This document shows positions 6,303 to 53,549 of a stretch of DNA of 64,000 bases, piece after piece (positions within the stretch are counted from its first letter, which is position 1; every line of letters starts with the position of its first letter). The notes below the pieces were generated by a model. The model saw only the letters and a program-made list of their open reading frames with translations. It was not told the origin of the DNA and did no database searches. The stretch lies in NCBI RefSeq assembly GCF_054482525.1, contig NZ_CM137006.1. One strand, 5' to 3'. The position numbers and the translations under genes are program-made.

Positions 6303-6356
6303 ATCCTGATTTAAATATCATCTATCAGAATTGAACAATTTTACATAGTTTATACT

Positions 6357-7346: not shown

Positions 7347-7354
7347 TAATTAGC

Positions 7355-8446: not shown

Positions 8447-8463
8447 TTCTGTGTAGTTCCATC

Positions 8464-8931
8464 TTATTGATTATCTGATTTTATATTTTTGCTTTCAATA
8501 TATTCTTTGTGAATATTATTCCATTCTTGACTGTCTTTTTCCCAAATAGATTTATATTCATCAAAAAGACTATCAATATCTGACTGGGTTACATCTTCTT
8601 TGGATTTTAAGTAATTAACTTTGTTTCTAAGTTGATACATGGCTAGCAAAGTAGCTTTTTGCCTAAACCATAATTTTTGATAATCAAATCTTGCAGTCCA
8701 CCCACTAACTAGAGTAAGACAGGCACTCACAATAAGAGCAGAATTTTTCTGTATTTTTTCATATCCAGATAAATCGAAGGCTAATATCAGTGTAGTAATA
8801 GTGCTCAAAAATATAGTCATGAAAAAAAATATTTTTAATTTTTTTTTATTCCATTTCGCCTTGCACTTTATTATGTTGATACTTTTATGGATTTCATCCA
8901 GTAAAAACTGTTGAGAAGATGTTATAGACAA
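8464..8931 (-). CDS. small membrane protein with two predicted transmembrane helices (SLATT-like topology, unverified)
   Basis: 155 aa ORF; hydrophobic stretches IFFFMTIFLSTITTLILAF and SALIVSACLTLVSGWTA. First codon is TTG; an internal ATG (MTIFL...) is an alternative start. Confidence 0.45.
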   Translation of the reverse strand: MSITSSQQFLLDEIHKSINIIKCKAKWNKKKLKIFFFMTIFLSTITTLILAFDLSGYEKIQKNSALIVSACLTLVSGWTARFDYQKLWFRQKATLLAMYQLRNKVNYLKSKEDVTQSDIDSLFDEYKSIWEKDSQEWNNIHKEYIESKNIKSDNQ

Positions 8932-8971
8932 TTATCTCACCTGAAATATTTTCACATTGGTAATAAAACTA

Positions 8972-9011
8972 CTCGCACTAACTGGTATGAGCTCATACCA
9001 GTTAGTGCGAG
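8972..9011. promoter_or_regulatory. perfect 40-bp palindrome (ctcgcactaactggtatgag / ctcataccagttagtgcgag) between integrase 3' end and the AT-rich operon
   Basis: Read directly; the two 20-nt arms are exact reverse complements centred on gagctc. A U-rich tract follows on the minus strand, so it may terminate the integrase transcript. Confidence 0.5.
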
Positions 9012-9175
9012 CATGGCTACCGCATTTGATGTGCTCAACAGCTTTGTATTGAGATACTTTTAACAATGTTGTATTTAACTAGCTGATACTATTAATTATA
9101 AATGAGAATCAGAGCAAAAACGAGCGGTAGGTAAGATATAGACCGAAAGCATATAAAACCATAAATATCAAATCA

Positions 9176-10378
9176 TTACACTACCGCATGTAAGATTCTA
9201 CGTACAGAGTGTAGATCAATCAAATAGTCTGAATACCACTGCATCATCTCTCTTCGCCCCTCCAGATATTGCGCATGGTTGTACGTCCCACGAATCGCAT
9301 TCTTATCGACATGCGCAAGCTGGGTTTCAATCCATGCCGTGTTGAACCCTTCCTCGTGCAAAATCGTACTCATCGTGTGACGGAAACTATGCCCCGTTAC
9401 CTTCCCCGTATACCCAATCCGTTTGAATACCTGATTAATACTCGCTTCACTCATCGTTTTACGTGGATCATTGCGCCCTGGGAACACCAAAGGATATTGC
9501 CCGGACATTACTTTGAGCTGTTGTACGATTTCTAGCGCTTGGGTAGAGAGGGGTACAAGATGGGGCCGTTTCATCTTCATACGCTCTGCAGGTATTTCCC
9601 ACACCGCTTTCTCAAGATCAAACTCACTCCAGAAAGCACCTCGAAGCTCGCCAGTACGAACTCCCGTAAGGATAAGCAGACGAGCGGCAAGAACAACTAA
9701 CGGGCTTCCTGTATAACCTGCGAGAGCTTTAAAGAAGTCTGGTAACTCCTCTACTGACAGGAAGGGATAATGCTTCGATTCATGCCCTGACATCGCGCTG
9801 GTTAGGTCCGCTGCAGGATTGTATTCCGCGCGACCTGTAACGATGGCATAACGAAAGACTTCGCTGCAGCGCTGGCGAACCTTCTTGGCCTTCTCTGTCG
9901 CGCCACGGCTTTCGATTCGACGCAGCACATTAAGCAGAACCAGCGGTTTGATTTCATTCACTGGCAGTTGGCCGATATAGGGGAAAATATCTTTATTGAA
10001 GGCTTCGATAATATCGGAGGCATAGCCTTCTGACCACCGGCTCACCTTAGTACCGTGCCACTCAAGCGCCACAGACTGGAACGTGTTGTTGAGCTGCACA
10101 TCGCGAACCAGCTTTTCTTCTTTCTTTGCGAAAGACGGGTCGATACCCTCGGCCAGCTTTTTCTTGGCTTCATCACGCAGAGCCCTCGCTTGTGCAAGGG
10201 AAACAGCCGGATAGACCCCAAAAGCCATACGCTTCTCTTTTCCATTGAAGCGATATTTCATTCGCCAGTATCGAGAACCAGAGGGAACGACTTCAAGATA
10301 CAAGCCAGCACCATCTGCCAGCTTATAGGCTTTCTCTTTGGGTTTAGCAGCGTCTACCTGTCGCGCATTAAGCTTCAT
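9176..10378 (-). CDS. int: P4-type tyrosine integrase (site-specific recombinase)
   Basis: ORF 9176..10417; likely start is the ATG at 10378 (MKLNARQVDAAKPKEKAYKLADGAGLYLEV...) with GGAG 9 nt upstream. Sits directly beside the tRNA-Thr 3' end. Confidence 0.85.
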   Translation of the reverse strand: MKLNARQVDAAKPKEKAYKLADGAGLYLEVVPSGSRYWRMKYRFNGKEKRMAFGVYPAVSLAQARALRDEAKKKLAEGIDPSFAKKEEKLVRDVQLNNTFQSVALEWHGTKVSRWSEGYASDIIEAFNKDIFPYIGQLPVNEIKPLVLLNVLRRIESRGATEKAKKVRQRCSEVFRYAIVTGRAEYNPAADLTSAMSGHESKHYPFLSVEELPDFFKALAGYTGSPLVVLAARLLILTGVRTGELRGAFWSEFDLEKAVWEIPAERMKMKRPHLVPLSTQALEIVQQLKVMSGQYPLVFPGRNDPRKTMSEASINQVFKRIGYTGKVTGHSFRHTMSTILHEEGFNTAWIETQLAHVDKNAIRGTYNHAQYLEGRREMMQWYSDYLIDLHSVRRILHAVV

Positions 10379-10541
10379 TGGGGGCATCTCCCTGGACCGA
10401 ACACAGAATGCCCCCACTTATGCCCCCAACTGCGACTTGATTTCGGTTGAGTCCAGTTGATAACAGGAGATAAGATACGGGCCAGAAACCGCAGTATACG
10501 GGCTTTTAGTTGATTTCGGTAGACTTGGGAAGAGTTTGAAA

Positions 10542-10617
10542 TGGTGCCGATAATAGGAGTCGAACCTACGACCTTCGCATTACGAATGCGCTGCTCTACC
10601 AACTGAGCTATATCGGC
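10542..10617 (-). tRNA. thrW: tRNA-Thr (anticodon CGU), thrW-like
   Basis: Reverse complement reads GCCGATATAGCTCAGTTGGTAGAGCAGCGCATTCGTAATGCGAAGGTCGTAGGTTCGACTCCTATTATCGGCACCA, 76 nt with CCA end and anticodon loop TTCGTAA. Confidence 0.9.
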
Positions 10618-10731
10618 CCTGAAAGGACATGTTCACGAACGTGAATCACGGTGGACAAGGTTAAAACTAACCGGGCGATGCGTCAATGGCCTTGTGAATC
10701 AAATGGCTACTTTTGCATCACCCGATTTTAT

Positions 10732-18465: not shown

Positions 18466-18500
18466 CTGCCGGATGGCGTTTAATCGCCTTCCGGCAGTTT
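18466..18500 (+). terminator. GC-rich imperfect hairpin followed by TTT downstream of pepD
   Basis: ctgccggatggcg ... cgccttccggcag inverted repeat (one mismatch) then tttcat, read directly. Confidence 0.45.
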
Positions 18501-18509
18501 CATCCTTCA

Positions 18510-18898
18510 TTATCCTTCGATAAAAGCCATCCCTGTAAATGTCCGTCGCGGGTTGCCACGTTCAATTTGATGATGGAACATTCGCCACTGCGATTTCAGC
18601 GCCGCGCTATTTTCCTGTTGCTGTTGTTCCAGCTTCCAGGCAATCAGCAATCGCGCCAGCCGCTTGTTAGCATGCCCAGAAACCAGTTTTTGCGCCCATG
18701 ATGAGGCCGATACGGACTCGGACAAATCCACTGAATAGTGCCGCACCAACTTTCGCTTAATGCCCATGCGTTATCGCCATCCAGAGAAATCAGCGCCGAA
18801 CGCAGCGTGTCAGAGTAGCGGCCCGTTTCTGTTTCCAGCACCGTTACCGCGACGTCTTGCCGGGTAAAAACGGCCTGCGGAGAAGAACGCTGCGCCAA
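18510..18898 (-). pseudogene. prfH: peptide chain release factor H homologue remnant, split across two frames
   Basis: Two overlapping minus-strand ORFs (18510..18767 and 18644..18898) carry release-factor-like segments in different frames. Boundaries approximate. Confidence 0.45.
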
Positions 18899-19076
18899 TC
18901 GGGTAGCCGCGTCCGGGGTGTAAATCTGGCATCCCTACTACGCGCTGCATGTTGGGTAAATTTGCCGTGGTGTGTAATTGTTGGATCGCTAAACTCTCGA
19001 TCCACAGGCCATCAGATGCGATGGTAAATACCGCATCGGATAAGGGACGAATAGATTTGCCCATGTACCATCCCAT
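18810..19076 (-). pseudogene. ykfJ: RtcB-like RNA ligase N-terminal fragment (ykfJ-like remnant)
   Basis: 88 aa ORF containing an RtcB-type [18 protein letters not shown] motif; far too short for a full RtcB. Boundaries approximate. Confidence 0.4.
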
Positions 19077-19308
19077 TTATACTCGTCATACTTCAAGTTG
19101 CATGTACTGCGACTCGAATTATTTAGAGTATATAAATATAAAAATCAGGAAATGGCAGACGAATCCAGGGCAAGAAAAAAGAATTAATCCTGGAAAGGTC
19201 TGCAAAGAGTCATTGATAAAGGATTTGTCATGATTTACCTCCTTGCAGTTTGTGGAATAAGAAAACGCGCACATACCAGGCGGGTGTTATTTTCATTGCA
19301 AGCTGAAT

Positions 19309-21588: not shown

Positions 21589-21604
21589 CTGGTAAAGTAT
21601 ACAG
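21589..21604 (-). promoter_or_regulatory. LexA (SOS) box upstream of dinB: CTGTATACTTTACCAG
   Basis: Reverse complement of 21589..21604 gives a CTG-N10-CAG motif matching the LexA consensus, about 17 bp upstream of the dinB start. Confidence 0.8.
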
Positions 21605-21642
21605 TGATTTCAGGGTTTGAGAAATGCGTAAAGATTCAGCAT

Positions 21643-22430
21643 CTAGCGCGTTCGCTGCGAATGCACCTGCTGCTTATCCAGCTTTTGCACCAGCGGCTGC
21701 ACCACTTTATCCCCATGCTGACCAAAGTATTGATACAGCGTATCGGACGCACTTTTGGTCAGCACCATAATCTCAATGCGTCGGTTGCCCGCGCTTTGCG
21801 GATTTTTCGCGTCCAGCAGCATCTGGTCCGCCATCGCGCTCACCTGCATCACTTTATCTTCCGGCATTCCGGCCTCTTCCAGCACCCGACGAGCCGAAAG
21901 CGCGCGATCGCCCGAAAGGTTCCAGTTGTTGTAGATATTGTTTTTGTAGGCCATCGCATCGGTATGCCCGGTAATAATAATTTTGTTATCGAGCGAGTCG
22001 AACACTGGCGCGAGCTCCACCAGCAAAGTTTTAAAGAACGGCATAATCTGTGCGCTGCCGCGTTCAAACATATTGCGGTTCTGGTCATCTTTAATCAGCA
22101 CGCGCAGTCCCTGGGGAACAATCTCCATCTCCAGATTCGCTTCCATATGTGCATCACGGGCAATGGTGTTGATACTGGTCGCCAGCTCGCCAAGCTCAGT
22201 GGCTGATTTCTTCTTCAGCAGCGCCGTTTTCTCATTGACGTCACGCGCTTTTTTCTCCGTCTCTTCCGGCACCGCCACGGTGGCAGGTTTTGGCGGATGA
22301 GACGGGCTGATTTTATTTAACGGCGACAACCCGCCGCCATTGAAAATCGACTGCCCGTGCAGCGCGGCGATAATGCTTTCACGCTCGGATTTACTGACGC
22401 TGTTGACAATCAACTTTATCGTCGTCACCA
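21643..22430 (-). pseudogene. lafU: lateral flagellar MotB-like motor protein, 5'-truncated remnant
   Basis: ORF 21643..22533 has an OmpA-like MotB C-terminal domain but no N-terminal TM segment; 5' end overlaps lfhA remnant. Boundary approximate. Confidence 0.6.
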
Positions 22431-24112
22431 AAGGGGCCGAGCGTATTTCCGAGGTTTCTGCCCGCTTTACCTTAGACGCGATGCCCGGTAAACAGATGGC
22501 GATTGACGCCGATCTTAACGCTGGGTTGATCAACCAGGCGCAGGCGCAAACCCGGCGTAAAGATGTTGCCAGCGAGGCCGATTTCTACGGCGCGATGGAC
22601 GGGGCATCGAAGTTTGTGCGCGGGGACGCCATCGCCGGGATGATGATTCTGGCGATCAACCTGATCGGCGGCGTCTGTATCGGCATCTTCAAATACAACC
22701 TGAGCGCCGACGCCGCCTTCCAGCAGTATGTGCTGATGACCATCGGCGACGGGCTGGTGGCGCAGATCCCGTCCCTGCTGCTCTCCACCGCGGCGGCAAT
22801 TATCGTCACCCGCGTCAGCGACAATGGCGATATCGCCCATGACGTGCGCCACCAGCTGCTGGCAAGCCCGTCGGTGCTCTACACCGCCACCGGGATCATG
22901 TTTGTGCTGGCGGTGGTGCCGGGGATGCCGCATCTGCCATTTTTGCTGTTCAGCGCCCTGCTGGGTTTTACCGGCTGGCGGATGAGCAAACGCCCGCAGG
23001 CGGCGGAGGCGGAGGAGAAAAGCCTCGAAACGCTGACCCGCACCATCACCGAAACCAGCGAGCAACAGGTCAGTTGGGAGACTATTCCGCTGATCGAACC
23101 CATCAGTTTAAGCCTCGGTTACAAACTGGTGGCGCTGGTCGATAAAGCGCAGGGTAACCCACTCACCCAGCGTATTCGCGGCGTGCGGCAAGTGATATCC
23201 GACGGCAACGGCGTGCTGCTGCCGGAGATCCGTATTCGGGAAAACTTCCGCCTCAAGCCCAACCAGTACGCCATATTCATCAACGGCATTAAGGCCGATG
23301 AAGCGGATATTCCGGCGGATAAACTGATGGCCCTGCCCTCCAGCGAAACCTACGGCGAGATTGACGGCGTGCTGGGGAACGACCCGGCGTACGGGATGCC
23401 GGTCACCTGGATTCAGCCTGCGCAGAAAGCGAAGGCGCTGAATATGGGGTATCAGGTGATCGACAGCGCCAGCGTGATTGCCACCCATGTGAACAAGATT
23501 GTCCGCAGCTATATTCCTGATTTGTTTAACTATGACGATATTACTCAGCTGCATAACCGTTTGTCGTCGATGGCACCGCGACTGGCGGAAGATTTGAGCG
23601 CGGCGCTCAATTACAGCCAGTTGCTGAAAGTGTACCGCGCGCTGCTGACCGAAGGCGTTTCCCTGCGCGATATCGTCACTATCGCCACCGTGCTGGTCGC
23701 CAGTAGCACAGTGACCAAAGATCATATCCTGCTGGCGGCCGATGTGCGCCTGGCATTGCGGCGCAGCATTACCCATCCGTTCGTTCGCAAGCAGGAGCTG
23801 GCGGTGTATACGCTGAATAATGAACTGGAAAATCTGCTGACCAACGTGGTGAATCAGGCGCAACAGGGCGGGAAAGTGATGCTCGACAGCGTGCCGGTCG
23901 ATCCGAATATGCTCAACCAGTTCCAGAGTACGATGCCGCAGGTAAAAGAGCAGATGAAAGCGGCGGGGAAAGACCCGGTGCTGCTGGTGCCGCCGCAGTT
24001 GCGTCCTTTGCTGGCGCGTTATGCAAGGTTGTTTGCGCCGGGGTTGCATGTGCTGTCGTATAACGAAGTGCCGGACGAGCTGGAGTTGAAGATTATGGGG
24101 GCGTTGAGTTGA
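22400..24112 (+). pseudogene. lfhA: lateral flagellar export protein FlhA homologue, 5'-truncated remnant
   Basis: ORF 22340..24112; FlhA-like sequence begins around INFIVVTKGAERISEVSARFTLDAMPGKQMAIDADLNAG, so roughly the first 130 aa are missing. Boundary approximate. Confidence 0.6.
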
Positions 24113-31797: not shown

Positions 31798-31855
31798 CCA
31801 GGGCAAGATTACGAAAGCCCGCTCCCTGCAAGGACTGACGCCAGGTAGTTTCTGT
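31798..31855. repeat. ~57-bp direct repeat copy 2, overlapping the 3' end of the H-repeat transposase gene
   Basis: Near-identical to 31665..31721; overlaps the stop codon region of the ORF at 31809..32945. Confidence 0.7.
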
Positions 31856-32945
31856 CCATGGCTGCTTTTCGCATCTTACGTCTTAACCCTGCCTTGAATA
31901 CATTATCATTCGTTAAAATATTAATAGCGATGTGCCGTATCCCTGAAAATAATTCTGCGGCGTTTCCTCTTCTTATTTTGCAGTCGTCTTCATTCATTAC
32001 CACGTCCAGACGCCAGTGCAGCTTATTCTCCACGTGCCAGTGATTTCGGATCGCTGTGGCGAACTTTTCTGCGGTTAAATCAGCAGAACTGATATAATAT
32101 CTGACCGTCATTTCTGGCTCTTTCTTTTGTTCTGCTATTATTGACCGAAAGGAGACTGCCACGCATAATTTCTTCAGTCCTTTCCATTCAAACGTGAAAT
32201 CAATAAGTTCATCAGGGACATCGCAAACAATATGAAGACGGATTTCTTCTCTGCCGTGACTCTTTTCACTTATTTCGTAACTGTCATGCTCTGGATTATT
32301 TAATTCTTTCAGCGGAAATTTTCCATCAAAGGCTTTATTTAGTCGTCCCTGATTTCCTTTTACAGCGAATAAATAATCACCGCCCTGTTTTTGCATCTTC
32401 TCTGCAATATCTTTCTGGCAACCCATCGCATCAGTTGTGATGATTTTTCCTTTAATATCCAGCATCTTAAGAAGTTCAGGGATAGCTGTGATCTCATTGG
32501 ATTTCTCATCCGTCCTGATCTGTCCGATAACCAGACTGTGCATTGTTGAGAACGCACTAATGACATGAATCGCTCCCTTGCGGCGACTCTTGTCATAAGA
32601 ATGCCGGAGTGTTTTTCCATCAATTGCGATGACGTCTTTATCATCTGAAGTATGGCAATCTCGCATCCAGTTAATAAAGCACTCGTGAAATTTTGCAGGA
32701 CTGATACAGGATACAACTCTGGCGATGGTATCGTGAACAGGAATACCATTTTCAAAATCACCGTATTGTTTTAAAAAATCGAGATGTGTTTCCCCAAAAT
32801 CCTCTATATCTTCCCAACCTTCCGCACCCGAAATAACGGCACAAATAGTCAACAGTAGAATATCCGATAATTTATTTTCCACTTTCCAGCCTTGTCTGTA
32901 ATCGGGGATAATAGAAATATGTTCCATCAATTTTTTAAGCTCCAT
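31809..32945 (-). CDS. H-repeat-associated protein (ISAs1-family transposase, YhhI/YdcC-like)
   Basis: 378 aa translation resembles E. coli H-repeat proteins that accompany Rhs elements ([32 protein letters not shown]...). Confidence 0.8.
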
Positions 32946-33906: not shown

Positions 33907-36900
33907 TCAAATCCAGGTATCTCTGCGGGGTTGCATCTTTTTAAAATAATCAGAGACAGAGGCTCCCATCTCATCCCCAGTTCCCGAACTCATTAATCCA
34001 TATCGATTTGCCGCCGCAGCATGCCCAAAAGGATTATCAGGAACGGGGCCGTTACCTATTATCATAGTACTAAGCCCTAATGGATCAACGTGTTGCACTG
34101 GATTCAGCGGATATTGGTACAGATTCCATCCCCCCTTCAGCCCAATCGGGTCCTGGATGATATACCGCCCCTGCAACGGATCGTAGTACCGGTGACGGTT
34201 ATAATACAGCCCCGACTCCTCATCGTGTTGCTGCCCTGGCAGACGGTACGGCTGGTGCAGGTGATGCGGGTTTTCCTCATTCAGCAGGTTGCCCCATTCA
34301 TCATACTCCCCGCTCCACGCCGTATTTCCGTCTTCGCTGATGAGCGCCAGCGGCAGGCCCCGGTGGTCGCAGTGGTAAAGATGAACTTTTCGCGCCGGTG
34401 TGTATTCCGGCTCCACCTGTTTTTCCAGTTGCTCCACCGTCAGCCCGCACTGCGCAAGCCACGCCCGGCTTTCACTGCTCACGCGGTCTGCCCGGATTTC
34501 CCCCTCCAGCCTGTCCAGCAGCCGCACCAGTTCAGCCGGGAACACCACGCCGTGTCCGTCCTCGCTCCCTTCCTGCTGGAGCTTCTCCGCCAGGCTCCGC
34601 CGCTGCGTTTTCTCCCGCTCGCCGTTGTCTGTTTCGATGCGGATGAGCGGTGTGAAGCTTCCCGGCTCGTATACCGTCTGGATACGTGTGCTGTCGGTCT
34701 GCACCGTCGTCAGGTGGTCGCCGTCCCAGCCGTACCACGTCACCTCCGGTTTACGCGACAGCGACATCCACCCCGTCAGGTCACGCTCCCGCCGCCATAC
34801 CCGTTTCGCCATTCGCCGTCCCAGCGGGTCGTAGAGGTAGCGGCTCTCGACCAGTGGCTCTCCATGCTGTATCCGCGTGTAGAACACCAGGCGGTGCTGG
34901 CTGTCGTAGTGGTGGGTCCGCTCGTCGTCCGTCCGTATCACACCCGCCGGGATGCGGTCCGTCTTCTCCGTCAGCCTGCCGTATTCATCGTGGCGGTAGA
35001 CATAGTGCGCATCCTCCGCGATGCGGTTATCCGGCCACACTGTGAGTGTACTGTCCGGGTGCAGCTCCGGGTCCGGCAGCCGGTTGCCCGCCGGGTCCGT
35101 GGCATACGGGATGCGGATGTCCAGGTCCGGTGCGAGGGTGCGCACGCTCTCCAGCCTGCCCGTGGCGCTGTAGCCGTATTCCCGCGTCTGTCGCGGGCCG
35201 CTGATGCGCACCAGGTCGCCGTTGTCATTCCACCCGTAGTCACGGTCATACACCAGGCTGTTCAGGTGCTGACTCTGTAACTGACCTGCGGGGGTGTATG
35301 TGCTGGTCAGTTCATATGCGGAATTACTGCCTGCCATGCTGCCGAAGCTGCGCACCGTCTCACGGTGCAGCCTGTCCCGCGTATACTCGACCAGCGGCGT
35401 CCCGCCCAGCTTCATTCCCGCCAGGTAACCGCTGCCATACGTCAGCCACTCCACCGGCGGCAGGCTGTCCGGCGTGACGCGGTTTGCCAGCCCCTGTTCG
35501 TTGTATGCCTGTTTCGTCTCATGCTGCCACAGCAGTTCCCCCGTCTCCGGGTTCTTCACCGTCTGGCGCTCACTGGTCAGACGGCCTTTATCGTCATAGC
35601 CGTAGTGGACCGCCACACGGTGGCCTTCACTGGTATGGCTGAGGGTGGTTAACCACCCGTGCTCATCCTACTGCCACTGCTCTGCCGGGTCGCCGTTCAC
35701 CGTCCGGTGCGTGATGCGGTCTGCTTCATCGTAGTACCACTGCGTGACCTGCCCCTCATCCTCGCTGCGGATGAGCTGCCCTGTGGCGCTGTACCGGTAA
35801 CGCTGTGTCCTGCCATCAAAGCCGCGCTGCTCCGTCAGGCGGTCCAGCACATCGTAGGTAAATTCACTCCGGCTGCCGTTCTCGTTGGTCAGCACGGTGA
35901 TGCGCCCGGCAGCGTCATACCCCATGCTGCGCGTCAGCCCGCCTTCCGTCACACTCACCGGACGCCCGCGTTTATCATATGCGATGGTGCTGCGTTTACC
36001 GTCCGGTGATATCGTTGCTGTCAGGTCGCCTGCGGCACTGTACTCATAACGGGTTTCACGCCCCTGCGCATCCTTCTGCCCTGTCAGCCTGCCGCGGCTG
36101 TCATAGAGACTATAAATACTGAGACCTTCCTCCCGGTGAACGGCGATTTGTTGACCGTACCGGTCATACTCATACCGCGTCATGTACCCCGAGCAGTCCG
36201 TGAAGGTCCGAAGCTGACCGTACCGGTTTCGCGTTATTCTCCGCGTTACCCCGATTCCGTCTTCCACCGCGCCGGGCAGGCTACTGCGGGGGGGAGTCAT
36301 AAAACCAGCGCGTAATGTTACCGTTGCGCGAGGTCTCTTCTGCCAGTCGGCCCTGACGGTCATATTTCCGGCTGCTGCGTAAACCATCCGGATATGTCAC
36401 TGAAGTCAGTTGCAACTGGCTGTTATAGCCATACCGCACCGTCCTGCCGTCCGGCAGTATCACTGAAGTCAGCTTTCCAGACGCCATATGCAGCCGGTAC
36501 ACCGTCCGCCGCCCCGCCGCATCCGTCTGCGCCTTCAGCCTCCCCGCCTCATCATACTCGCTGCGGGTGATGCTCCCGTCCGCATGCTCCTTCTTCACCA
36601 CCCGCTTCAGGCCACCTTCGCCTTCCGTGTACAGCACCTCCCGCCGGTTCAGGCTGTCCGTGATGGTCACACGGTCCTGCCCGTACTCAAAGCGGTAGTC
36701 AAGTCCCTCCGGGTTGACCTGCTCCGTCACCCGACCGGTATCATCATACCGGTAGCGGCTCTCCGGCCTCCCTGCATAATGGTGCGCCACCATCCGCCCG
36801 GCGTGCTCCGCATCATAAGTAAACCCGCGCACCTGCGTCCCGCTGCGGTCATACACCGCCCGCAGTTCTCCGCTGGCCGTGTACGTGTAGCGCGCCAGCG

Positions 36901-37855
36901 GCGCAGTCGGCTGTTCATCCGGGTATGCCGGGTCGTGTGTCAGCCACACCGCCTCCAGCCGGATACCGTTATCGGCACCGTATTCTGTACCGGCGGGCAG
37001 CGTGTCGGGGAAAGCTGAAGAAGAGGAAGCAGAACGGGGACCTGCAGGGGAAGATAAAGACGTGGCGCGCTGTTTACGGAAGGCTTCCGCCCGCTGCGCC
37101 TGCGTGGTCAGCGCCAGGTGAAAACGACGGCCCGCGCCGTCCGTCACCCTGGTGATTTCGCCAGCCAGTTCGCCTGCGGCCTCGCGGTGGAAAGCCAGTG
37201 AAAGCCCGAAACCGTCCACCACGCCCGTCAGCACCCGGTATGCAGGCGGCTCCGGCGGCAGCACTTCGTCCGCCTCCGGCACCCGCTCCGGCCAGCCGAG
37301 TATCCACCACGGCCCCTGAAGGCTGTTTGCCGCCAGGTACACATGCGGACTCAGGCGAACATCTTCCGGCAGCACCTGCCAGAGCGCGCTTAGCGGCTGC
37401 GAACTGTGCTGCTCCGCCACCCCGCCCCGCGCCAGCCAGAACGACTCACTGCGGCTGTAACTTATCTCGCCGGGAAACAGGGGTTCAAAGTGAATACTCC
37501 TGCCGCCACTGTCGTTGAGTATCAGGCCTTCATCGCGTATCTGTAAGCGGATATCGAAGGGGGCTTTCCAGCCGGGACCAAACACCCCCACCGGCGCGGG
37601 TGTCCTGGTTCGGTAGCTGCTGTAAGCGCGAGAAAGAATAAACGGCAGCGGGCCGGGCAGCGCAAGGTCCGTCTCGCCCGGCAGCACCTTCGCACCCAGT
37701 AGCGGGTTCACCGGGTTAGCATAGGTAATCCCTCCCGGACACACCGAGCAGGCCACTCCTGTCGGCGCACCTATCAGCCCCCCTGCTGAACCCTGCACAA
37801 TATCCAGTCCCTTGCGGGTCATGTCACCCTGCCGCGCCGCCGGTTTTCCGCTCAT
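33907..37855 (-). pseudogene. rhs: PAAR-Rhs family protein (T6SS effector type), disrupted by a +1 frameshift and an in-frame TAG
   Basis: Three consecutive ORFs (36281..37855, 35668..36387, 33907..35616) tile one Rhs protein: PAAR-like N-terminus, YD repeats, DPIGL core end. Frameshift at the G7 run 36288..36294; in-frame TAG at 35665..35667. Confidence 0.8.
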
Positions 37856-37931
37856 GGTTTATTCCTTTTCTTTTACCTTACATGTCCATACAAATAGTTA
37901 CCTATACTGTCTTTGAATATTGCCCTACCAT

Positions 37932-38381
37932 TTAAAGCCCACCTATTTCTTGCGACAGAAAAGGGATTTCTTTTTTAATCCAATCTATCATTTCATTTTT
38001 TTCAAAACATACGTTAATGCCATTCACACTTCCACATTCACCAAAACCATCAAAATAAATTTCACATTTATTATTTTTATTCGAAACAATGTCAACCCCC
38101 CATCTTATATCGTTATTCCCCTCCTTCCTGAAATACTTCATTTGCAATAAATCAATTATCTCACCAGCATAAAAATCGCTAACCCCATTCACCACCACTT
38201 TATGTTTGTATATTCTCTTGAGACCTTCCTTGCTAAGCGGGGTTAAGGTGGTAACATATGCTGGAAGATTAATTATTTCTATCGTTTTCACACTATCTAT
38301 TCCACACAATTCATTCACTCGCCCCATCCCCAATACCGAAGCAGAAAATAGAGACAATAAAACCATCAAATATTTCATCAT
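37932..38381 (-). CDS. putative secreted immunity protein for the upstream Rhs toxin
   Basis: 149 aa ORF 12 bp downstream of the Rhs C-terminal domain; signal peptide MMKYLMVLLSLFSASVLG; AT-rich. Confidence 0.45.
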   Translation of the reverse strand: MMKYLMVLLSLFSASVLGMGRVNELCGIDSVKTIEIINLPAYVTTLTPLSKEGLKRIYKHKVVVNGVSDFYAGEIIDLLQMKYFRKEGNNDIRWGVDIVSNKNNKCEIYFDGFGECGSVNGINVCFEKNEMIDWIKKEIPFLSQEIGGL

Positions 38382-38393
38382 AAAAAAATATCA

Positions 38394-41300
38394 CTATTCT
38401 GGCGTGCCATTTATTGTTGCCGTCTGCGTTGGTGTATTCACACGATAATACACTCCATTATATGCTGTTCTGGTACACTCACCTAAAGTTTTCGCCGCAT
38501 GCTGTTCAATTAAAGTGATAACTCTCGCCTCTTCTTTATTTTTATATTGTTCATCCGCACGTCTCACAAGCCCCATATAACCATCCTTATCAATAAGATA
38601 TAAGTGCGCATGAGCAAACTCATGCCCCAAACCTAATGCAGGTGATTGTGATTTCGATTTTAAATCAGTTGAACAAAATAAAGCCGCCTTACCATTCCAA
38701 TATATAGTCATTTTATCCGGGTCAAATCTAACGTCGGTTTCATCAATATACTCTATCTTTATGGTTTCTTCAGAGCTTGATAAAAAATCTATAGCTTCTT
38801 TCATTCGTGAATCTTGTTTTAAATACTCAACAGCCTGATTAAAATCACTTGGATCACCGTTAACATGGAATTTTAAACCCAAAGAATCTATAAACCGAAC
38901 AGGGTTTAATGGATATTTATACAGATTCCATTCACCTCTTAGCCCGATTGGATCCTGGGTGATATACCTTCCCTGTAGCGGGTCATAGTACCGGTTCCGG
39001 TTATAGTACAGTCCTGATTCCTCATCATGCTGCTGCCCCGGCAGACGGTATGGCTGGTGCAGGTGATGCGGGTTCTCCTCATTCAGCAGGTTGCCTCATT
39101 CATCATATTCCCCACGCCATTCCGTTGCTCCTTCGGTACTGATGAGCGCCAGCGGCAGCCCCCGGTGGTCACAGTGATAAAGATGAATTTTTCGCTCAGG
39201 TAAATAAACCGGCTCTATCTGTGCCGCCAGCCGCTCCACCGTCAGCCCGCACTGTGCCAGCCACTGGCGGCTTTCACTGCTCACGCGGTCTGCCCGGATT
39301 TCCCCCTCCAGCCTGTCCAGCATCCTCACAAGTTCTGCCGGGAACACCACACCGTGGCCGTCCTCGCTTCCTTCCTGCTGCAACTTCTCCGCCAGGCTCC
39401 GCCGCTGCGTTTTCTCCCGCTCGCCGTTGTCTGTTTCGATGCGGATGAGTGGTGTGAAGCTTCCCGGCTCGTATACCGTCTGGATCCGGCTCTGTTGTGT
39501 CTGTATCGTCGTCAGCCTGTCACCGTCCCAGCCGTACCACGTTACCTCCGGTTTACGCGACAGCGACATCCACCCCGTCAGGTCACGTACCCGCCGCCAC
39601 ACCCGTTTACCCGTCCGGCGGCCCAGCGGGTCGTAGAGGTAGCGGCTCTCCACCTGCGGCTCGCCATGCTGTATCCGCGTGTAGAACACCAGGCGGTGCT
39701 GGCTGTCGTAGTGGTGGGTCCGCTCGTCGTCCGTCCGTATCACACCCGCCGGGATGCGGTCCGTCTTCTCCGTCAGCCTGCCGTATTCATCGTGGCGGTA
39801 GACATAGTGCGCATCCTCCGCGATGCGGTTATCCGGCCACACTGTGAGTGTACTGTCCGGGTGCAGCTCCGGGTCCGGCAGCCGGTTGCCCGCCGGGTCC
39901 GTGGCATACGGGATGCGGATGTCCAGGTCCGGTGCGAGGGTGCGCACGCTCTCCAGCCTGCCCGTGGCGCTGTAGCCGTATTCCCGCGTCTGTCGCGGGC
40001 CGCTGATGCGCACCAGGTCGCCGTTGTCATTCCACCCGTAGTCACGGTCATACACCAGGCTGTTCAGGTGCTGACTCTGTAACTGACCTGCGGGGGTGTA
40101 TGTGCTGGTCAGTTCATATGCGGAATTACTGCCTGCCATGCTGCCGAAGCTGCGCACCGTCTCACGGTGCAGCCTGTCCCGCGTATACTCGACCAGCGGC
40201 GTCCCGCCCAGCTTCATTCCCGCCAGGTAACCGCTGCCATACGTCAGCCACTCCACCGGCGGCAGGCTGTCCGGCGTGACGCGGTTTGCCAGCCCCTGCT
40301 CGTTGTATGCGTGTTTCGTCTCATGCTGCCACAGCAGTTCCCCCGTCTCCGGGTTCTCCACCGTCTGGCGTTCGCCGGTCAGGCGGCCTTTATCGTCATA
40401 GCCATAGTGGACGGCAACACGGTGGCCTTCGCTCAGGTGGCTGATTTCTCTCAGCCAGCCGTGGCCATCATACTGCCACTGCTCTGCCGGTTCGCCGTTC
40501 ACCGTGCGGTGAGTGATACGGTCCGATTCATCGTAGTACCAGAGGATGACAAGCCCCTCATCTTCACTCTGCGTGAGTTTTCCGGTCAGGTCATAATGAT
40601 AACGTTGCGTCCGCCCGTCAAAGCCGCCCTGCTGTACCAGGCGGTCCAGCGCATCGTAGCTGAAGTCGCTGTGACTGCCGTTCTCGTTGGTCAGGCTGAT
40701 GACACGTCCTGCCGCGTCATACTCCATACTGCGCGTCAGCCCGCCCTGCGTGGTGCTGACCGCCTTTCCCCACGCATCGTACTGTGTCTCGCTCCGGTTG
40801 CCGTCCGGGGTGATAACGGCAGTCAGGTCGCCTGCGGCGTTGTATTCATACCGCGTTTCACGGCCCTGTGCGTCTTTCACCGAGGTTAACCGGCCACGGT
40901 TGTCATAGCGGCGGTAAAGGCTGATGCCTTCCTCGCGGTGGACCGCCGTCATCTGGCCGAAGCGGTCATACTCATAGCGGGTCTGGTAGCCCGAGCAGTC
41001 GGTGAACGCCAGCAACTGACCGTAGCGGCTCCAGGTCATCTGCCGGGTGCTGCCCGTCGCATCTGTTGTCGTGGCCGGTAATTCACTGTGCGGATTATCA
41101 TAAGCATACCGGATGACGTCCCCACTGCGCGATGTCTCCGATACCAGCCTGTCCCGCTCATCATACGCCCGGCGGCTCTCCAGCCCGTCCGGGTACACCA
41201 CCGCCGTCACCAGGTTCCCGTCGTTATAGTAAAATTTCGTCTCCCGCCCGTCCGGCGTGGTGATGTCCGTGATGTCGCCTGACACCACATTCAGACCGTA

Positions 41301-42641
41301 CTCTGTCCGCCGTCCCGCCGCGTCCGTCTGCGCCGTAAGCCGCCCCACCGGGTCATACCCGCTGCGCGTGACGCTGCCGTCCGCCAGTTCTTTTTTCACC
41401 ACCCGCTTCAGCCCGGCCCCGCCTTCTGTATGCAGCACCTCACGCCGGTTCAGGCTGTCCGTGACGGTGATGCGGTCCTGCTCATACTGGTAGCGGTAAC
41501 TCAGGCCTGCCGGGTTCAGCTGCTCCACCACCCGCCCCGCATCGTCGTAGCGGTAGCGCATCTCCGGCCTTCCCGCGTAACGGTGCGCCACCATCCGGCC
41601 CGGGTGCTGCGCGTCATACGTGAAAGCGCGCACCTGCGTATTGCTGCGGTCATATACCGCCAGCAGTTCACCGGCTTCCGTATACGTGTACCGCACCAGT
41701 GGCGCACCGGGCAGGCTCTCCGGGTATGCCGGGTCGTGCATCAGCCACACCGCCGAAAGACGGATGCCCCTGTCGGGGCCGTATTCGGTACCGGGCAGTG
41801 TGTCGGGGAACGCTGAGGCTGAGAGAGGGCGGGAACGGTCAGAAGAAGATAGCGAAGAGGTGCGGGCCTCTTCCGCACGCTGCGCCTGCGTGGTCAGCAC
41901 CAGACGGAACTCCCGCCCGGCACCGTCCGTCACGCCGGTGATTTCCCCGGCCAGGTCACCGGCGGCCTCACGCCGGTACGTCAGCGTCCGCCCGAAGCGG
42001 TCCGCCAGCCCGGTAAGCACCCGGTACGGCGGCAGCGGCGCTGGCAGTACGTCCTCAGCACCCGGCACCCGCTCTGACCACCCCAGTATCCACCACGGTC
42101 CCTGTGCGCTGTTGGTCGCCAGGTAAAGATGCGGGCTTAACCGGATATCCGGCGGCAGCGACGCCCACAGCCGTGCCAGCGTGTGGCCGTCCGGCTGCGC
42201 TGCCTTACCACCGCGAACCAGCCACATTGACTCGCTGCGGCTGTACACCGCCTCCCCCGGCAGCAGCGGCTCAAGGTGAATGCTCCGCCCGCCGTTGTCG
42301 TTGAGTATCAGTCCGTCATCACGTAGCTGTAAGCGGATATCAGAAGGCGCTTTCCAGCCGGGGCCAAAAATCCCCACCGGCGCAGGCGTCTTCGTCCGGT
42401 AGCTGCTGTAGGTGCGGGAGAGAATGAACGGCAGCGGGCCGGGCAGCGCAAGGTCCGTCTCGCCGGGCAGCACCTTCGCCCCCAGCAGCGGATTTACCGG
42501 GTTGCCCGAAGTCATCCCGCCCGGACACACCGAGCACGCCACGCCGGTGGGCGCGCCAATTCTTACACCTGCCGAACCCTGGACAATGGGACCGCCATAC
42601 TGAGTCATATCTCCCTGACGCGCCGCTGGTTTTCCGCTCAT
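38394..42641 (-). pseudogene. rhs: PAAR-Rhs family T6SS effector with HExxH (zinc-metallopeptidase-like) C-terminal domain; frame interrupted by in-frame TGA
   Basis: Main ORF 39096..42641 (1181 aa) ends at a TGA where the paralogue has TGG (Trp); the same frame continues through the DPIGL core end into a C-terminal domain containing [10 protein letters not shown]. Confidence 0.75.
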
Positions 42642-42707: not shown

Positions 42708-44816
42708 TCAGTACTCTCTCATATCCGGCGTATCCTGCTTTTCATCAGGGGTCTTCGGTGGGGATTTCGAGGCTGCACAGTTCCAGTTAATCAACAGTGA
42801 GTCACCATTAACCTGCTCCTTACCCTGCAAATGAATTTTTGTGCCGTTGAGAAAAATTTGTCCGTCCTTAGTCAGCACCAGCCTTGCCTTACCACAGCAG
42901 AGTTCCAGATGCTCACCGCCGGAGTAAATCGCGGTCTGCCCGGTATCATCCTTTTTCGTTTTACCAACGGTGAAGGTAACGTTATTTCCGACTTTGACGT
43001 CATAACCCAGCCCGACCATCAACGATTTATGCAAACCGATCTGCGAGGACTGCATCAGGGCCACCGAGGTGTTCATAATGCCACCTACCGTCGTCTGATA
43101 CGCCACGCCCACAGTCAGCGCACGAACAAGTCCAATCGTTTCCACCTGAACAGAGCCCACTTTAATGATCTGGTTACTGCCCACCGTCTCTATCTGGTTA
43201 ACACCCACCGTCTGTATCTGATTGTTGGTAACCGCAATCATCTGATTGTTGCCAATGGTCTCAGCATGGTTGTTTATCACATCCGTGGTGCGGTTATTCA
43301 GCACCTCGGTGTTCATGTTCTTCTGCGCGTGGATGTAGACCTGTTCTTTCCCTGTCGCATCGTCAAACTTCAGTTCATTAAACCCGCTGCCCTTATAGGT
43401 TTTCGAACGAATGGTCATCTGCGTCTTTGTTCCCGGCAGGCTGCCGGGGGTGCGGTTTTCCTGGTGGTAGGTACGCCCCATAATAATCGGCTGGTCCGGA
43501 TCGCCGTTGAGGAAGTCCACAATGACTTCCTGACCCACACGCGGTATCGCCAGGTTGCCAAAGCCGGTGCCTGCCCACGCCTGTGCCACACGGATCCAGC
43601 ATGAACTGTCCTGGTTTGACGGGTTATAGCGGTCCCAGTTAAATTTCACCCGCACGCGGCCATGTTCATCACAGAAGATTTCTTCTCCTGCCGGTCCCGT
43701 CACGACGGCGCTCTGCGGGCCGTCCACCAGCGGTTTCAGCAACGGCTGTGGCCGCCATGTTCTGTCTGCCGGTATTACCGCAAAGTGGTTATTCAGCGTG
43801 GTACCTGAACCCCTGCGTCCCGGCACCGCCTGCGGCTGCTCGCCGTGCAGTTCACTTGCCACCACCTGCCATTCCCGGTTCAGGTTCGCCTGCGGATGCC
43901 CCGTCAGCGCAATTCGCCGTCCCGGCCATATCTCCGGCGAACGGCTTGTTCCGCGCGCCACTTCTGCGTTGTTTCGCCAGCCATCCATCTGCCAGCAGGC
44001 AAAGTTCTGCCCGTGGGCACCCTTGAAACGTCCGGGGTAGTCATACACTTCATACTGTGTGCGCTGGTAATCCTGGTGCTGGCCTTCCTGATCAAAACGC
44101 CCTGCCCAGCCGGGTCGTTTAAAGGTGTAGTCTTTGGTCACCACGGAAGATGGGCGGATTTGTGCGCTGTAGAGGAACTGGCTGATGCATAGGGTGCTCA
44201 CCTCGGTACGGGTGTTCGGATTCCAGGGGATCTCAAAGGACTCCGGCAGATAACGCACGGTGTCGCACAGGACCAGGCTCTGGTCGGTACTTTTTTGCGC
44301 GTGCTCCTCATAAAAGAAGATGCCTTCCTCCGCCGCCATCCGGCACAGGAAATCGTAATCGGTTTCGCCGTACTGGACACAAAACTCACGGGAAGGATGC
44401 GGCTCGCTGAACAGCGGACTCCACTCGGTCACCCCGTTTTCTTTCAGGATCGTCGCGAGTATGCTTTCGATGTCCTCATTCTGGAAGATACGGAAGTTCT
44501 GGCGCAGCCCTGTGCGCCACAGCGGTGGGCACACCTTCATGCTGTACAGCATCTGGTTTTTGTCGTTCTCCCCCAGTTCAAACCAGGTCACCACACCTTT
44601 CACCCGGCGCTGTACGTCATCGCCCTGCCATACCGTCAGGTAGGCCATTTTGTCCAGCACCTGCGCAAATTCAAGGGAGAGAAACTGCTGGCTGACCAGA
44701 GAGAGATCGAGGGAAAAGAGCGAAGAGAGTGACTGGTTCAGATGAAAGGAGACCACCGCAAACGCGTCCGGTGGCAGGCCGTCCACTTCCAGCGTGAAAC
44801 GTAATCCGGTTGACAT
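42708..44816 (-). CDS. vgrG: type VI secretion spike protein VgrG (TssI)
   Basis: 702 aa with VgrG-type gp27/gp5-like layout; immediately upstream of the Rhs gene. Confidence 0.9.
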   Translation of the reverse strand: MSTGLRFTLEVDGLPPDAFAVVSFHLNQSLSSLFSLDLSLVSQQFLSLEFAQVLDKMAYLTVWQGDDVQRRVKGVVTWFELGENDKNQMLYSMKVCPPLWRTGLRQNFRIFQNEDIESILATILKENGVTEWSPLFSEPHPSREFCVQYGETDYDFLCRMAAEEGIFFYEEHAQKSTDQSLVLCDTVRYLPESFEIPWNPNTRTEVSTLCISQFLYSAQIRPSSVVTKDYTFKRPGWAGRFDQEGQHQDYQRTQYEVYDYPGRFKGAHGQNFACWQMDGWRNNAEVARGTSRSPEIWPGRRIALTGHPQANLNREWQVVASELHGEQPQAVPGRRGSGTTLNNHFAVIPADRTWRPQPLLKPLVDGPQSAVVTGPAGEEIFCDEHGRVRVKFNWDRYNPSNQDSSCWIRVAQAWAGTGFGNLAIPRVGQEVIVDFLNGDPDQPIIMGRTYHQENRTPGSLPGTKTQMTIRSKTYKGSGFNELKFDDATGKEQVYIHAQKNMNTEVLNNRTTDVINNHAETIGNNQMIAVTNNQIQTVGVNQIETVGSNQIIKVGSVQVETIGLVRALTVGVAYQTTVGGIMNTSVALMQSSQIGLHKSLMVGLGYDVKVGNNVTFTVGKTKKDDTGQTAIYSGGEHLELCCGKARLVLTKDGQIFLNGTKIHLQGKEQVNGDSLLINWNCAASKSPPKTPDEKQDTPDMREY

Positions 44817-45025: not shown

Positions 45026-45544
45026 TTATGCTTCCAGCGGTGCGCGCCAGTCGTCGGCACCGGAGGTGCCAGACTTGACGTGTTCCCACTCTATTTTGCG
45101 GTAGGCCAGTGAAACTTCGAGCAACTGGGTGAACTCGCGTTTCGCCGGATCCTGGCAATGCGGCATATGCAGTTTCATATCGACAATCGTCGAATCGGTC
45201 AGGCGGGTGGTGAAATAATGCTCCTGTTTGCCTTCCACAGAGGTACGCCACCAGTGAAGTTCAGTGGTTGGCAGCATTTCGCCGGAGGCCAGTGCGTTGT
45301 ACATCAGCGGAACAGCTTTGTTCAGCGCCACGGTAAAAATGAACGGCTTGTGAGCACGCTGACCCGCAGGCTGGCCGGACTGAGGATCGGTCGGGACAGT
45401 AACGTTATGCAGGAATTCCTGCACCAGCATCTCGTCTTCGTGCCCCTGCACATAGATGTTGCCGACAGAATCAGCGGTAAATGCACCTGCAGTAATATTT
45501 CCCTGGGTCTGACCTGTGATGGAGATATAACACGGTGTTGGCAT
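45026..45544 (-). CDS. hcp: type VI secretion tube protein Hcp (TssD)
   Basis: 172 aa translation with typical Hcp sequence (MPTPCYISITGQTQGNITAGAFTADSVGNIYVQGHEDEMLVQEF...). Confidence 0.9.
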   Translation of the reverse strand: MPTPCYISITGQTQGNITAGAFTADSVGNIYVQGHEDEMLVQEFLHNVTVPTDPQSGQPAGQRAHKPFIFTVALNKAVPLMYNALASGEMLPTTELHWWRTSVEGKQEHYFTTRLTDSTIVDMKLHMPHCQDPAKREFTQLLEVSLAYRKIEWEHVKSGTSGADDWRAPLEA

Positions 45545-52210: not shown

Positions 52211-53549
52211 CATAAGCGCTAACTTAAGGGTTGAACCATCTGAAGAATGCGACGCCTCGGTGCCTCGTTAAGACGATGCCTCGCGTTCTTCAATTGCGTT
52301 TTGTAGGCTGTCAGGGATACTGTCCCACGAATGGCCACCTGTAAGCTCCAGATGACCATTTTTGTTATTCTCCACAACGAGTTAGTTCTTCTTTTCGGAT
52401 CCGGCACTTCTGGGGGGGAAATCCAGCGATGGCTGGATTATGTCGTCAATTAAAAATGCGGCGAGTAGATTAGCAAATATCCACGCTTTCGCGAGTTCAG
52501 GTTCCTTTGCACGCAAAGCATCCAGGTGCAGCAAACTTTTGAGCCGCTTAAAAGCCAGTTCAATTTGCCATCGCAGACGGTAACAATCAGCCACTTGCTC
52601 TGCTGAATATTCATCTTCCGGTAATGATGTTAGCAATAGCACATGGCCCGCTGCTTCCAGCGTTTCCGCCTGAACTACTCGTCCTTTTCGACGATTCTCG
52701 CTGAGCAGTCGGGTTTTACTGATTAATGCTTTTTCGGGAGGAAGTGATACGGCAATGAGACGTGCCGGAAAGGGAGCTCCGGCTTTTTTATTACCTGAAT
52801 TGCCTATCATTACAGTGGTTTCACCGTTCTTACCGCAATCCAGCCCGCGCAGAAAACCCATCATGTCAAAGCGCATTCCTTCTGCAGTTAACCAGCGCAA
52901 TCCTCGCCAGTGAACCCGGACGATATAATCAGCTTCTCCAAAAGCAAGTGAGCGGATACATTCGGGACGCGAACCGAATCCCCGGTCAGCAATGCGTATC
53001 TCGTCTGCCGTTTGCGCAAATCGGTCCAGCCGTTCAGCGTCTCTGCTGTCGGTTAGCTCAAAATCAGTGAACTGACAGGTATGAGGATCATATCCCATAT
53101 GTAGTCGCCATTCAGCGCTGCCGCCCCCGGGCGCACTGATTGCTGTTCCATCGACAAGACGCAATCTCTTTCCGCTTGTACAACCCGTAACTGCGGCGCG
53201 TACAGCAAGTGTTTGTGCGGCAAGTATGCCAAACCAGTCGGCGGCATTCCGCAGCCGCTTCAGGAGAGCCACGTCAGATAATGTTGCAACGTCATGGAGC
53301 TGAGCCCATGCAGTGACTTCACGTAATGACATCCCCCCGGGGCCGTAAGCCAGCCCCAGACGTAGCAGAGTTGCAGCATCACGAATTTCGCGGCGGCGGG
53401 TTAGAGCCCCGGCATTACGTGCCGAAGTATCCAGTTCTTCGGGCTTACCAATATGGGCCAGAATTGCTGACCAGTTATCGTGAGAGTAATTCATCGGCAC
53501 GTTAAATCATATCAGGCGTAATACCACAACCCTTAAGTTAGCGCTTATG
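52211..53549 (-). mobile_element. IS186 (IS4 family) insertion sequence
   Basis: ~23-bp terminal inverted repeats (cataagcgctaacttaagggttg at 52211-52233, exact reverse complement at 53527-53549), flanking 11-12 bp duplication ggagatatccc, target of form GGGG-N6-CCCC. Confidence 0.85.
52382..53494 (-). CDS. IS186 transposase (DDE, IS4 family)
   Basis: ORF 52382..53500; translation from the ATG at 53494 (MNYSHDNWSAILAHIGKPEELDTSARNAGALTRRRE...) matches IS186 transposase as recalled. Confidence 0.85.
   Translation of the reverse strand: MNYSHDNWSAILAHIGKPEELDTSARNAGALTRRREIRDAATLLRLGLAYGPGGMSLREVTAWAQLHDVATLSDVALLKRLRNAADWFGILAAQTLAVRAAVTGCTSGKRLRLVDGTAISAPGGGSAEWRLHMGYDPHTCQFTDFELTDSRDAERLDRFAQTADEIRIADRGFGSRPECIRSLAFGEADYIVRVHWRGLRWLTAEGMRFDMMGFLRGLDCGKNGETTVMIGNSGNKKAGAPFPARLIAVSLPPEKALISKTRLLSENRRKGRVVQAETLEAAGHVLLLTSLPEDEYSAEQVADCYRLRWQIELAFKRLKSLLHLDALRAKEPELAKAWIFANLLAAFLIDDIIQPSLDFPPRSAGSEKKN

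Follow-up and report, generated by a model that had tools for sequence, protein, structure and literature searches.

The known relatives of the gene described here are Rhs proteins that carry a toxin at their C-terminus. In the structure of Rhs1 from Photorhabdus laumondii the last ~95 residues of the shell form a C-terminal plug, which is an aspartyl protease; the protein is cut after the second of two DPLGL motifs located 17 residues apart, and the encapsulated toxin is thereby freed (PMC8636562). The Tox-HopH1 class of toxins is defined by an HExxH motif plus [DE]N and is found on RHS and type VI secretion system (T6SS) toxins (Zhang et al. 2012, PMC3482391). Effectors combining Rhs with Peptidase_M91 are listed across Salmonella (PMC12994826). 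One of them, the PAAR-RHS-Peptidase_M91 effector SED_RS06335 of Salmonella Dublin, is encoded in Salmonella pathogenicity island 19 (SPI-19) together with its immunity protein SED_RS06340, and the pair contributes to interbacterial competition (PMC8867033). The metallopeptidase of VgrG2b and its immunity protein PA0261 provide an experimental case of immunity to a periplasm-acting toxin (PMC6899460). Here we analyze a gene of this kind from a 64,000-nucleotide stretch of an Escherichia coli chromosome (RefSeq assembly GCF_054482525.1, contig NZ_CM137006.1), further referred to as the window. It is an rhs gene linked to vgrG in the T6SS-1 cluster, located at 38394–42641 on the minus strand and interrupted by one in-frame TGA codon.

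The gene is very probably an effector of T6SS-1 inactivated by a strain-private TGG>TGA transition (Trp1182>stop). We assign its C-terminal domain to the zincin metallopeptidases of the M91/Tox-HopH1 kind, and the next gene, which is intact, encodes a conserved partner that fits an immunity protein.

The rhs gene and its internal stop codon

The translated region comprises 1416 codons with exactly one internal stop, codon 1182. It reads TGA at 39096–39098 (context GAT GAA TGA GGC), and in the list of open reading frames (ORFs) the gene ends there as an ORF of 1181 aa (39096..42641). Beyond the TGA the same frame stays open for 234 further codons, up to the TAG at 38394–38396, and includes the motifs DPIGL and DSLGL and then a domain bearing HEFAH. 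In the paralogous Rhs ORF located downstream (33907–35616) the equivalent codon is TGG (34294–34296). The initial annotation, made from the letters of the window, had described a single in-frame TGA at the place of a TGG in the paralogue and a frame continuing without stops through DPIGL into an HExxH domain. Both the translation and the codons of the orthologues and the paralogue agree with that description, and so do the coordinates.

The same annotation called the product an Rhs effector, which is borne out by the NCBIfam equivalog model RHS_core (NF041261). The 1181-aa ORF scores 2551.5 bits, given a curated cut-off of 2000 bits, and covers model positions 1–1186 of 1261. Model positions 1241–1261 match past the stop in the same frame, at the start of the C-terminal query. 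Pfam models of DUF6531 (E 9.5e-18) and of RHS repeats also match the protein, and its N-terminus contains the literal sequence KPAARQGD. The GC content equals 58–69% in the Rhs core and 36–40% in the tip and the downstream ORF (37800–39000); this drop from the core to an AT-rich tip with its downstream ORF is the classic composite structure of Rhs genes. The vgrG gene adjoins rhs, as had been stated. Coordinates of these features and of others discussed below are given in Table 1.

Table 1. Features of the rhs locus and its surroundings in the window
Feature	Coordinates	Strand	Basis and remarks
Truncated Rhs ORF, codons 1–1181	39099..42641	-	ORF list, RHS_core, Pfam; short PAAR-like N-terminus, DUF6531 and YD/RHS-repeat shell; ends ...WRGEYDE
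Premature stop TGA, codon 1182	39096..39098	-	TGG (Trp) in orthologues and paralogue
Remainder of Rhs core behind the stop, same frame (C-terminal plug, putative aspartyl autoprotease region)	38874..39095	-	Sequence, motif spacing, RHS_core 1241–1261
Predicted toxin domain K1257–E1415, divergent Peptidase_M91/Tox-HopH1 zincin	38397..38873	-	Terminal TAG at 38394–38396
Candidate immunity gene, 149 aa, 'RHS element protein dsORF-h1' family	37932..38381	-	Homology, hydropathy; four Cys
VgrG, intact, 702 aa	42708..44816	-	NCBIfam TIGR03361, E 4.7e-188; 66 bp upstream of the Rhs start
Hcp, in the vgrG-rhs divergent unit	45026..45544	-	ORF list; WP_001142958.1 in the identical SCU-102/PCN033 region
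Second Rhs gene, in three ORFs (524, 239 and 569 aa)	33907..37855	-	Paralogue used for comparison in the initial annotation
IS4-family (IS421-like) insertion in tagH of T6SS-1	52212..53548	.	12-bp direct repeat GGGAGATATCCC on both sides

The stop codon as a private allele

The nearest complete genomes, those of E. coli strains SCU-102 and PCN033, were used for comparison. Both encode orthologues annotated as an intact 'RHS element core protein' of 1417 aa (WP_172636112.1) and 1420 aa (WP_047938332.1), respectively, followed by the downstream gene WP_024177823.1. In the three-way alignment the sole difference at codon 1182 is A for G at 39096. Since the orthologues are intact, the stop is a lesion rather than a chance arrangement; a comparison with orthologous Rhs genes had been proposed as a check in the initial annotation, and it came out clearly, with TGG at this codon in both strains.

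The flanking DNA of the window differs from SCU-102 by one single-nucleotide polymorphism (SNP) in 29,292 nt, and on the T6SS side there are 1–4 differences per ~10 kb. Judging by this similarity, the window strain belongs to almost the same clone as SCU-102 and PCN033. The region of the toxin and the downstream gene, used as a query of 1219 nt, is 99.9% identical to both, with one mismatch. Counting the stop, ~5 SNPs in the 64 kb are private; the others, which differ from both relatives, are at 31548, 42919, 43203 and 63733. Other private changes are the loss of one CACTAC unit near 39707 and the insertion of an insertion sequence (IS) of ~1.3 kb.

The TGA allele was then sought in larger collections. 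None of 5,426 complete E. coli genomes matched a 71-nt query centred on the stop perfectly; it was matched over its full length 43 times, each time with one mismatch. A 42-nt query with the TGA allele had no matches among 100,044 GTDB species-representative genomes or in metagenome contigs, and the truncated protein of 1181 aa, looked up exactly in public assemblies, had no record. By these comparisons the stop is either a G>A transition, recent and private, or an error of base calling, and not a conserved recoding site. A real mutation is favoured because the quality of the assembly is otherwise that of a finished sequence, because the change replaces a base and is no homopolymer indel, and because the paralogue carries G.

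Two further observations concern the variability of the gene. At 39707 (codon ~976) the window has HHYD, in contrast to HHYHYD in SCU-102 and PCN033, that is, an in-frame loss of one CACTAC. The short form is also present in the paralogue in the window, and slippage or gene conversion could explain it. Differences from the relatives are clustered at 40929–41034, 41823–41877, 42075–42453 and 35497–35668, where the window agrees with one relative or the other; such patches look like the mosaic pattern usual for recombination between Rhs copies.

The C-terminal toxin domain

The two motifs behind the stop, DPIGL (aa 1230–1234, 38940–38954) and DSLGL (aa 1252–1256, 38874–38888), are 17 residues apart. 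In the second one S replaces P of the DPxGL type. Because this spacing matches that in Rhs1, cleavage is predicted after L1256 and the toxin is predicted to start at K1257. The HEFAH motif occupies aa 1340–1344 (38610–38624) and is followed by a segment EExRV...E...AAKTLGE...R.

The domain has no match in NCBIfam. A database search for the C-terminal domain yielded 25 relatives, including two from Hafnia alvei (43–45% identical) with the NCBI name 'M91 family zinc metallopeptidase'. In an alignment of 19 sequences the block of the HExxH region, the downstream EExRV and the pattern E..AA..L.E..R are all invariant; columns H84, E85 and H88, which are invariant too, correspond to aa 1340, 1341 and 1344. 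The Pfam model Peptidase_M91 (PF14891) matches 10 of the 19 aligned relatives at E<=1e-3 and 18 of the 19 at E<=0.1, the best value being 6.6e-9. The family consensus YDNxEExRV appears in the window as YKNKEEARV, with N kept and D replaced by K. The closest structural matches of the toxin are botulinum neurotoxin (BoNT) light chains, GtgA and NleC, that is, protease toxins acting inside cells, and the domain has the zincin (metallopeptidase) fold. We assign it to the M91/Tox-HopH1 zincin metallopeptidases, and this assignment through its relatives supports the earlier suggestion of a candidate zinc-dependent peptidase.

In public data the Rhs-borne branch of M91/Tox-HopH1 comprises 2,381 cluster representatives. 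We considered whether every M91-like member of the family is a polymorphic toxin and rejected this: a standalone protein (P0016) is encoded among housekeeping-type genes with no immunity-like neighbour. In another database protein (P0057, 1090 aa) a VgrG-like N-terminus is joined directly to the end of an E. coli Rhs core and an M91 toxin; this may be a genuine fusion of VgrG with a toxin or else a chimeric gene call.

The intact protein would be an Rhs shell enclosing a C-terminal toxin of ~160 aa. The VgrG spike would carry it, and the toxin would be freed by aspartyl autocleavage after the second D-x-x-G-L motif. As a Peptidase_M91/Tox-HopH1 zinc metallopeptidase, the toxin would use H1340-E1341-x-x-H1344 and a third ligand that is probably located in the EExRV helix. 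Translation in the window strain should end 75 codons upstream of the predicted cleavage site, so the truncated product would be left without the toxin, the two cleavage motifs and the greater part of the plug, and could not deliver anything toxic. The immunity gene is intact. The truncated N-terminal part might still sit on VgrG. For separate expression of the whole toxin we found no in-frame start with a Shine-Dalgarno-like sequence.

The downstream gene

The ORF of 149 aa starts 12 nt past the Rhs stop, separated from it by the spacer TGATATTTTTTT. No convincing minus-strand promoter was found before it, nor was a terminator. The protein belongs to no significant Pfam or NCBIfam family, and its AlphaFold2 model (pLDDT 68) gave no informative structural match. 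It is 74–97% identical to proteins of E. coli and Shigella; those named 'RHS element protein dsORF-h1' are 85% identical to it.

Homologues were also found behind distant Rhs-M91 genes. The small ORF following the gene of H. alvei (OZ061315.1, L007) is 33% identical (E 3e-23), and an ORF at the same place in a distant metagenome-assembled genome (L016) matches at a profile E of 9.6e-18. The downstream ORFs of two environmental loci (L008 and L015) match weakly (E 0.08 and 3e-4), and downstream of one Rhs-M91 gene (L014) no immunity homologue was found. By hydropathy, all five homologues considered (5/5) have one N-terminal hydrophobic segment and no other membrane-spanning stretch. That of L016 begins with a lipobox-like ...VVAC, and of the cysteines in the window protein the first two are aligned with the pair present in the Hafnia protein.

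The next gene thus appears to encode a conserved partner that carries an export signal, in agreement with a role in immunity. Its conserved position and N-terminal hydrophobic segment are in line with the initial annotation, where a downstream signal-peptide protein was taken for the cognate immunity gene.

As the partner has a putative export signal in every relative examined, the most likely site of action of the toxin would be the periplasm of target bacteria. A conserved exported partner is the immunity signature of extracytoplasmic toxins, as in VgrG2b/PA0261, and for this reason we lean, by a little, towards action of the intact toxin in the target-cell periplasm. There is about an even chance that the statement holds for the whole Rhs-borne M91/Tox-HopH1 branch, namely that its members are periplasm-acting antibacterial proteases neutralised by a conserved exported immunity family, unlike NleD and HopH1, which cleave host proteins. 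This exported family appears to be unnamed so far, apart from the label 'dsORF-h1'. If the statement is true, the window copy is a freshly killed member of the branch, and its intact sisters may be used to find the bacterial substrate.

Alternative explanations

We considered it unlikely that the TGA is a sequencing or assembly error and that the true genome has TGG, with an intact and functional effector. Such an error would account for the uniqueness of the TGA among all the collections searched and for the intact state of the cognate vgrG, hcp and immunity genes; moreover, Rhs genes are multi-copy repeats prone to read mis-mapping or polishing errors. However, the rest of the window is of finished quality (one SNP in 29.3 kb compared with SCU-102), a substitution is not a homopolymer indel, cross-mapping from the paralogue in the window, which has G, would not create A, and there are other real lesions in the T6SS-1 cluster, such as an IS421 insertion with a target duplication. 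G>A transitions are also the commonest spontaneous change. A leaky allele, in which Trp-tRNA(Trp) reads UGA at a low rate and re-inserts Trp, so that the toxin is attenuated rather than dead, seems less probable still. Low-level read-through has been measured in reporters of E. coli K-12, where Trp-tRNA(Trp) and release factor 2 (RF2) compete and UGA is read through at ~2% at 37 C and ~4% at 25 C (PMC10570021), and the lost residue here is Trp, so that the read-through product would be native. The latter, however, would hold for any TGG>TGA mutant and does not speak for design; the stop is conserved in no relative and so is not a selected feature, the ~700 nt ribosome-free stretch past it may reduce the downstream mRNA, and the T6SS here also bears tagH::IS421. 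UGA-G, the context of this stop, is not known as one of the leakiest contexts, and the values obtained in K-12 are probably inflated by its weak RF2 variant. Programmed recoding at the TGA, with selenocysteine or another specified read-through, is hardly credible. Its only support is the open frame past the TGA, which is explained simply by a recent mutation; all orthologues and paralogues have TGG, and a permissive Rfam scan around the stop (E<=10) found no selenocysteine insertion sequence (SECIS) or other recoding element, only chance-level matches of the snoRNA type. The initial annotation had left three options, and among them programmed read-through has no support, the TGA being private and no recoding element having been found, whereas a nonsense mutation or a sequencing error stands, one of these being the case.

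A different question is the target of the intact toxin. It could act in the bacterial cytoplasm or on proteins of a eukaryotic host, like NleD and HopH1, and not in the bacterial periplasm; we regard this as possible, although doubtful. The nearest named family, M91 (NleD, HopH1), consists of effectors of type III secretion systems (T3SS) that cleave host proteins (PMC3482391), and the top structural matches listed above act intracellularly. A Salmonella survey places Tox-HopH1 with anti-eukaryotic effectors (PMC12994826), and a preprint on Shiga toxin-producing E. coli (STEC) assumes a cytoplasmic target (10.1101/2024.03.05.583533). Against this stand the tightly linked partner gene and its homologues behind distant Rhs-M91 genes, which begin with a signal-peptide, lipoprotein-like or anchor-like segment. 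Immunity to toxins that act in the periplasm is usually marked in this way, as in VgrG2b/PA0261 (PMC6899460), and the M91 effector/immunity pair of S. Dublin acts in bacterial competition (PMC8867033).

Several points weigh against our interpretation of the locus as a recently inactivated effector with a periplasm-acting peptidase. Here the genes of VgrG, Hcp and the immunity protein have remained intact, and the module must therefore have worked until recently. A base-call error would likewise appear as an allele known from one assembly, and Trp-tRNA(Trp) is expected to read some of the UGA codons, which would bring back the wild-type residue (PMC10570021). An HMM (hidden Markov model) search of the C-terminal domain, another check proposed in the initial annotation, succeeded with many of the relatives, but the match of Peptidase_M91 to the window domain is below the threshold (E 0.079 and 0.056). 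PAAR_motif of Pfam matches Rhs residues 2–29 weakly (E 0.14 and 1.4). Finally, the export signal of the partner was judged only from hydropathy.

Decay of T6SS-1 and the rest of the window

The window contains an island at tRNA-Thr, then fadE, ivy and yafV, and continues into the T6SS-1 cluster. The vgrG-rhs pair adjoins hcp and the divergent genes from tssB to tssM. In the two relatives vgrG itself is damaged, by Q592* in SCU-102 and by a frameshift in PCN033, whereas in the window it is intact (window 42708–44816 compared with L011 109–2217 and L013 109–2216). PCN033 additionally has tssG::IS200C. The IS421-like element in tagH of the window, with a transposase ORF at 52382–53500 on the minus strand, has no counterpart in SCU-102 or PCN033, but the annotation of strain VTB96933v includes a similar tagH::IS421.

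Three near-identical genomes with three different knock-outs in one T6SS-1 module suggest repeated independent inactivation, and this decay fits relaxed or negative selection in the clone. A genuine nonsense mutation in rhs is unsurprising, because the module carries different knock-outs across the clone. The pattern looks like repeated loss of the T6SS-1 weapon in one clone with the immunity gene kept.

The second Rhs gene is annotated as 'frameshifted; internal stop' in SCU-102 and as 'frameshifted' in PCN033. Its own tip is short and AT-rich and is followed by small ORFs, which extend down to 33226. At the outer edge of the Rhs region there is an ISAs1-family transposase gene (31809–32945, minus strand), and an ISAs1 remnant also borders a related vgrG-rhs island in strain 55989 (L006).

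Outside the T6SS-1 cluster, the integrative island beside tRNA-Thr (~2750–10620) may be a defence island. According to the annotation of the identical region of SCU-102, it encodes an integrase, a SLATT-domain protein, a nucleoid-associated protein, a RelA/SpoT-like GTP pyrophosphokinase, DprA and a RecQ-family helicase. Further, ~18500–19100 and ~21600–24100 retain what is left of rtcB and prfH, in frameshifted or partial form, and of the lateral flagellar (Flag-2) cluster, namely an flhA fragment and lafU, again as annotated in SCU-102.

Comparison with known systems

The loci of SCU-102 and PCN033 are the same as that of the window in position, flanking genes, and toxin and immunity sequences. 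They differ in having TGG at codon 1182, one more CACTAC unit (HY) at ~codon 976, a broken vgrG and a few gene-conversion-like patches in rhs.

The pair of 'RHS element core protein' and dsORF-h1 known in E. coli, e.g. in strain 55989 (WP_000014727.1/WP_000978828.1), has the same order of vgrG, rhs and the 149-aa ORF. Its toxin is ~73% and its immunity protein ~85% identical to those of the window, with DNA ~87% identical. The pair differs as a diverged toxin/immunity allele, present in ~1,000 complete E. coli genomes, and in 55989 it is located in an orphan vgrG-rhs island and not in the T6SS-1 cluster.

The S. Dublin effector SED_RS06335 shares the same Rhs N-terminal stretch, as read from the published deletion primer, and an M91 C-terminal domain with HExxH; it is followed by a small immunity gene, SED_RS06340, whose product has an N-terminal hydrophobic segment. 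This likeness was established via the description and primers rather than the full sequence. The differences are the C-terminal end of the effector (...GIPPRMKY in the primer translation) and the immunity protein of 110 aa with '1 TM' (one transmembrane segment); the effector was not found among the top 150 family representatives.

The metallopeptidase of Pseudomonas aeruginosa VgrG2b is fused to VgrG instead of being enclosed in an Rhs shell, and by fold score it is only distant; no similarity was detected between PA0261 and the immunity protein of the window. NleD and HopH1 (Pfam Peptidase_M91) share HExxH and the downstream [DE]N-EE region with the window toxin, many relatives of which are matched by the M91 model. 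They differ in being T3SS effectors, whose substrates are eukaryotic proteins and which lack an immunity partner.

Broken Rhs-M91 genes also occur elsewhere. In STEC O22:H8 strain 154 an Rhs-Peptidase M91 gene located downstream of vgrG is split by a premature stop (Ec154_02824/02825; 10.1101/2024.03.05.583533), but that stop is at another position, separating the N-terminal part from the rest, and represents an independent event. The split gene of H. alvei, with an Rhs ORF of 1179 aa and a separate M91 ORF, was considered as a shared feature and rejected, since it results from a frameshift in a G-run at a different site. The frameshift in OZ061315.1 (L007 4960–5030) lies just past DPIGLRG and led to the calling of a separate 'M91 family zinc metallopeptidase' of 170 aa; the frameshift represents a break of independent origin or else a sequencing error in the homopolymer.

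The lesion itself is of little weight: Rhs genes are often pseudogenes, and the sister strains carry an intact annotated copy. The Rhs-M91/Tox-HopH1 class of toxins is common, and its conserved, apparently exported partner speaks in favour of a target in the periplasm. Many E. coli genomes have the intact gene among their annotations, and effectors of the Rhs-M91 type have been described before (PMC3482391, PMC8867033, 10.1101/2024.03.05.583533). The locus of the window is of the kind already known from these systems, an Rhs shell with an M91 toxin and a putatively exported candidate immunity protein of the dsORF-h1 type, of which it is very probably an ordinary strain-specific pseudogene.

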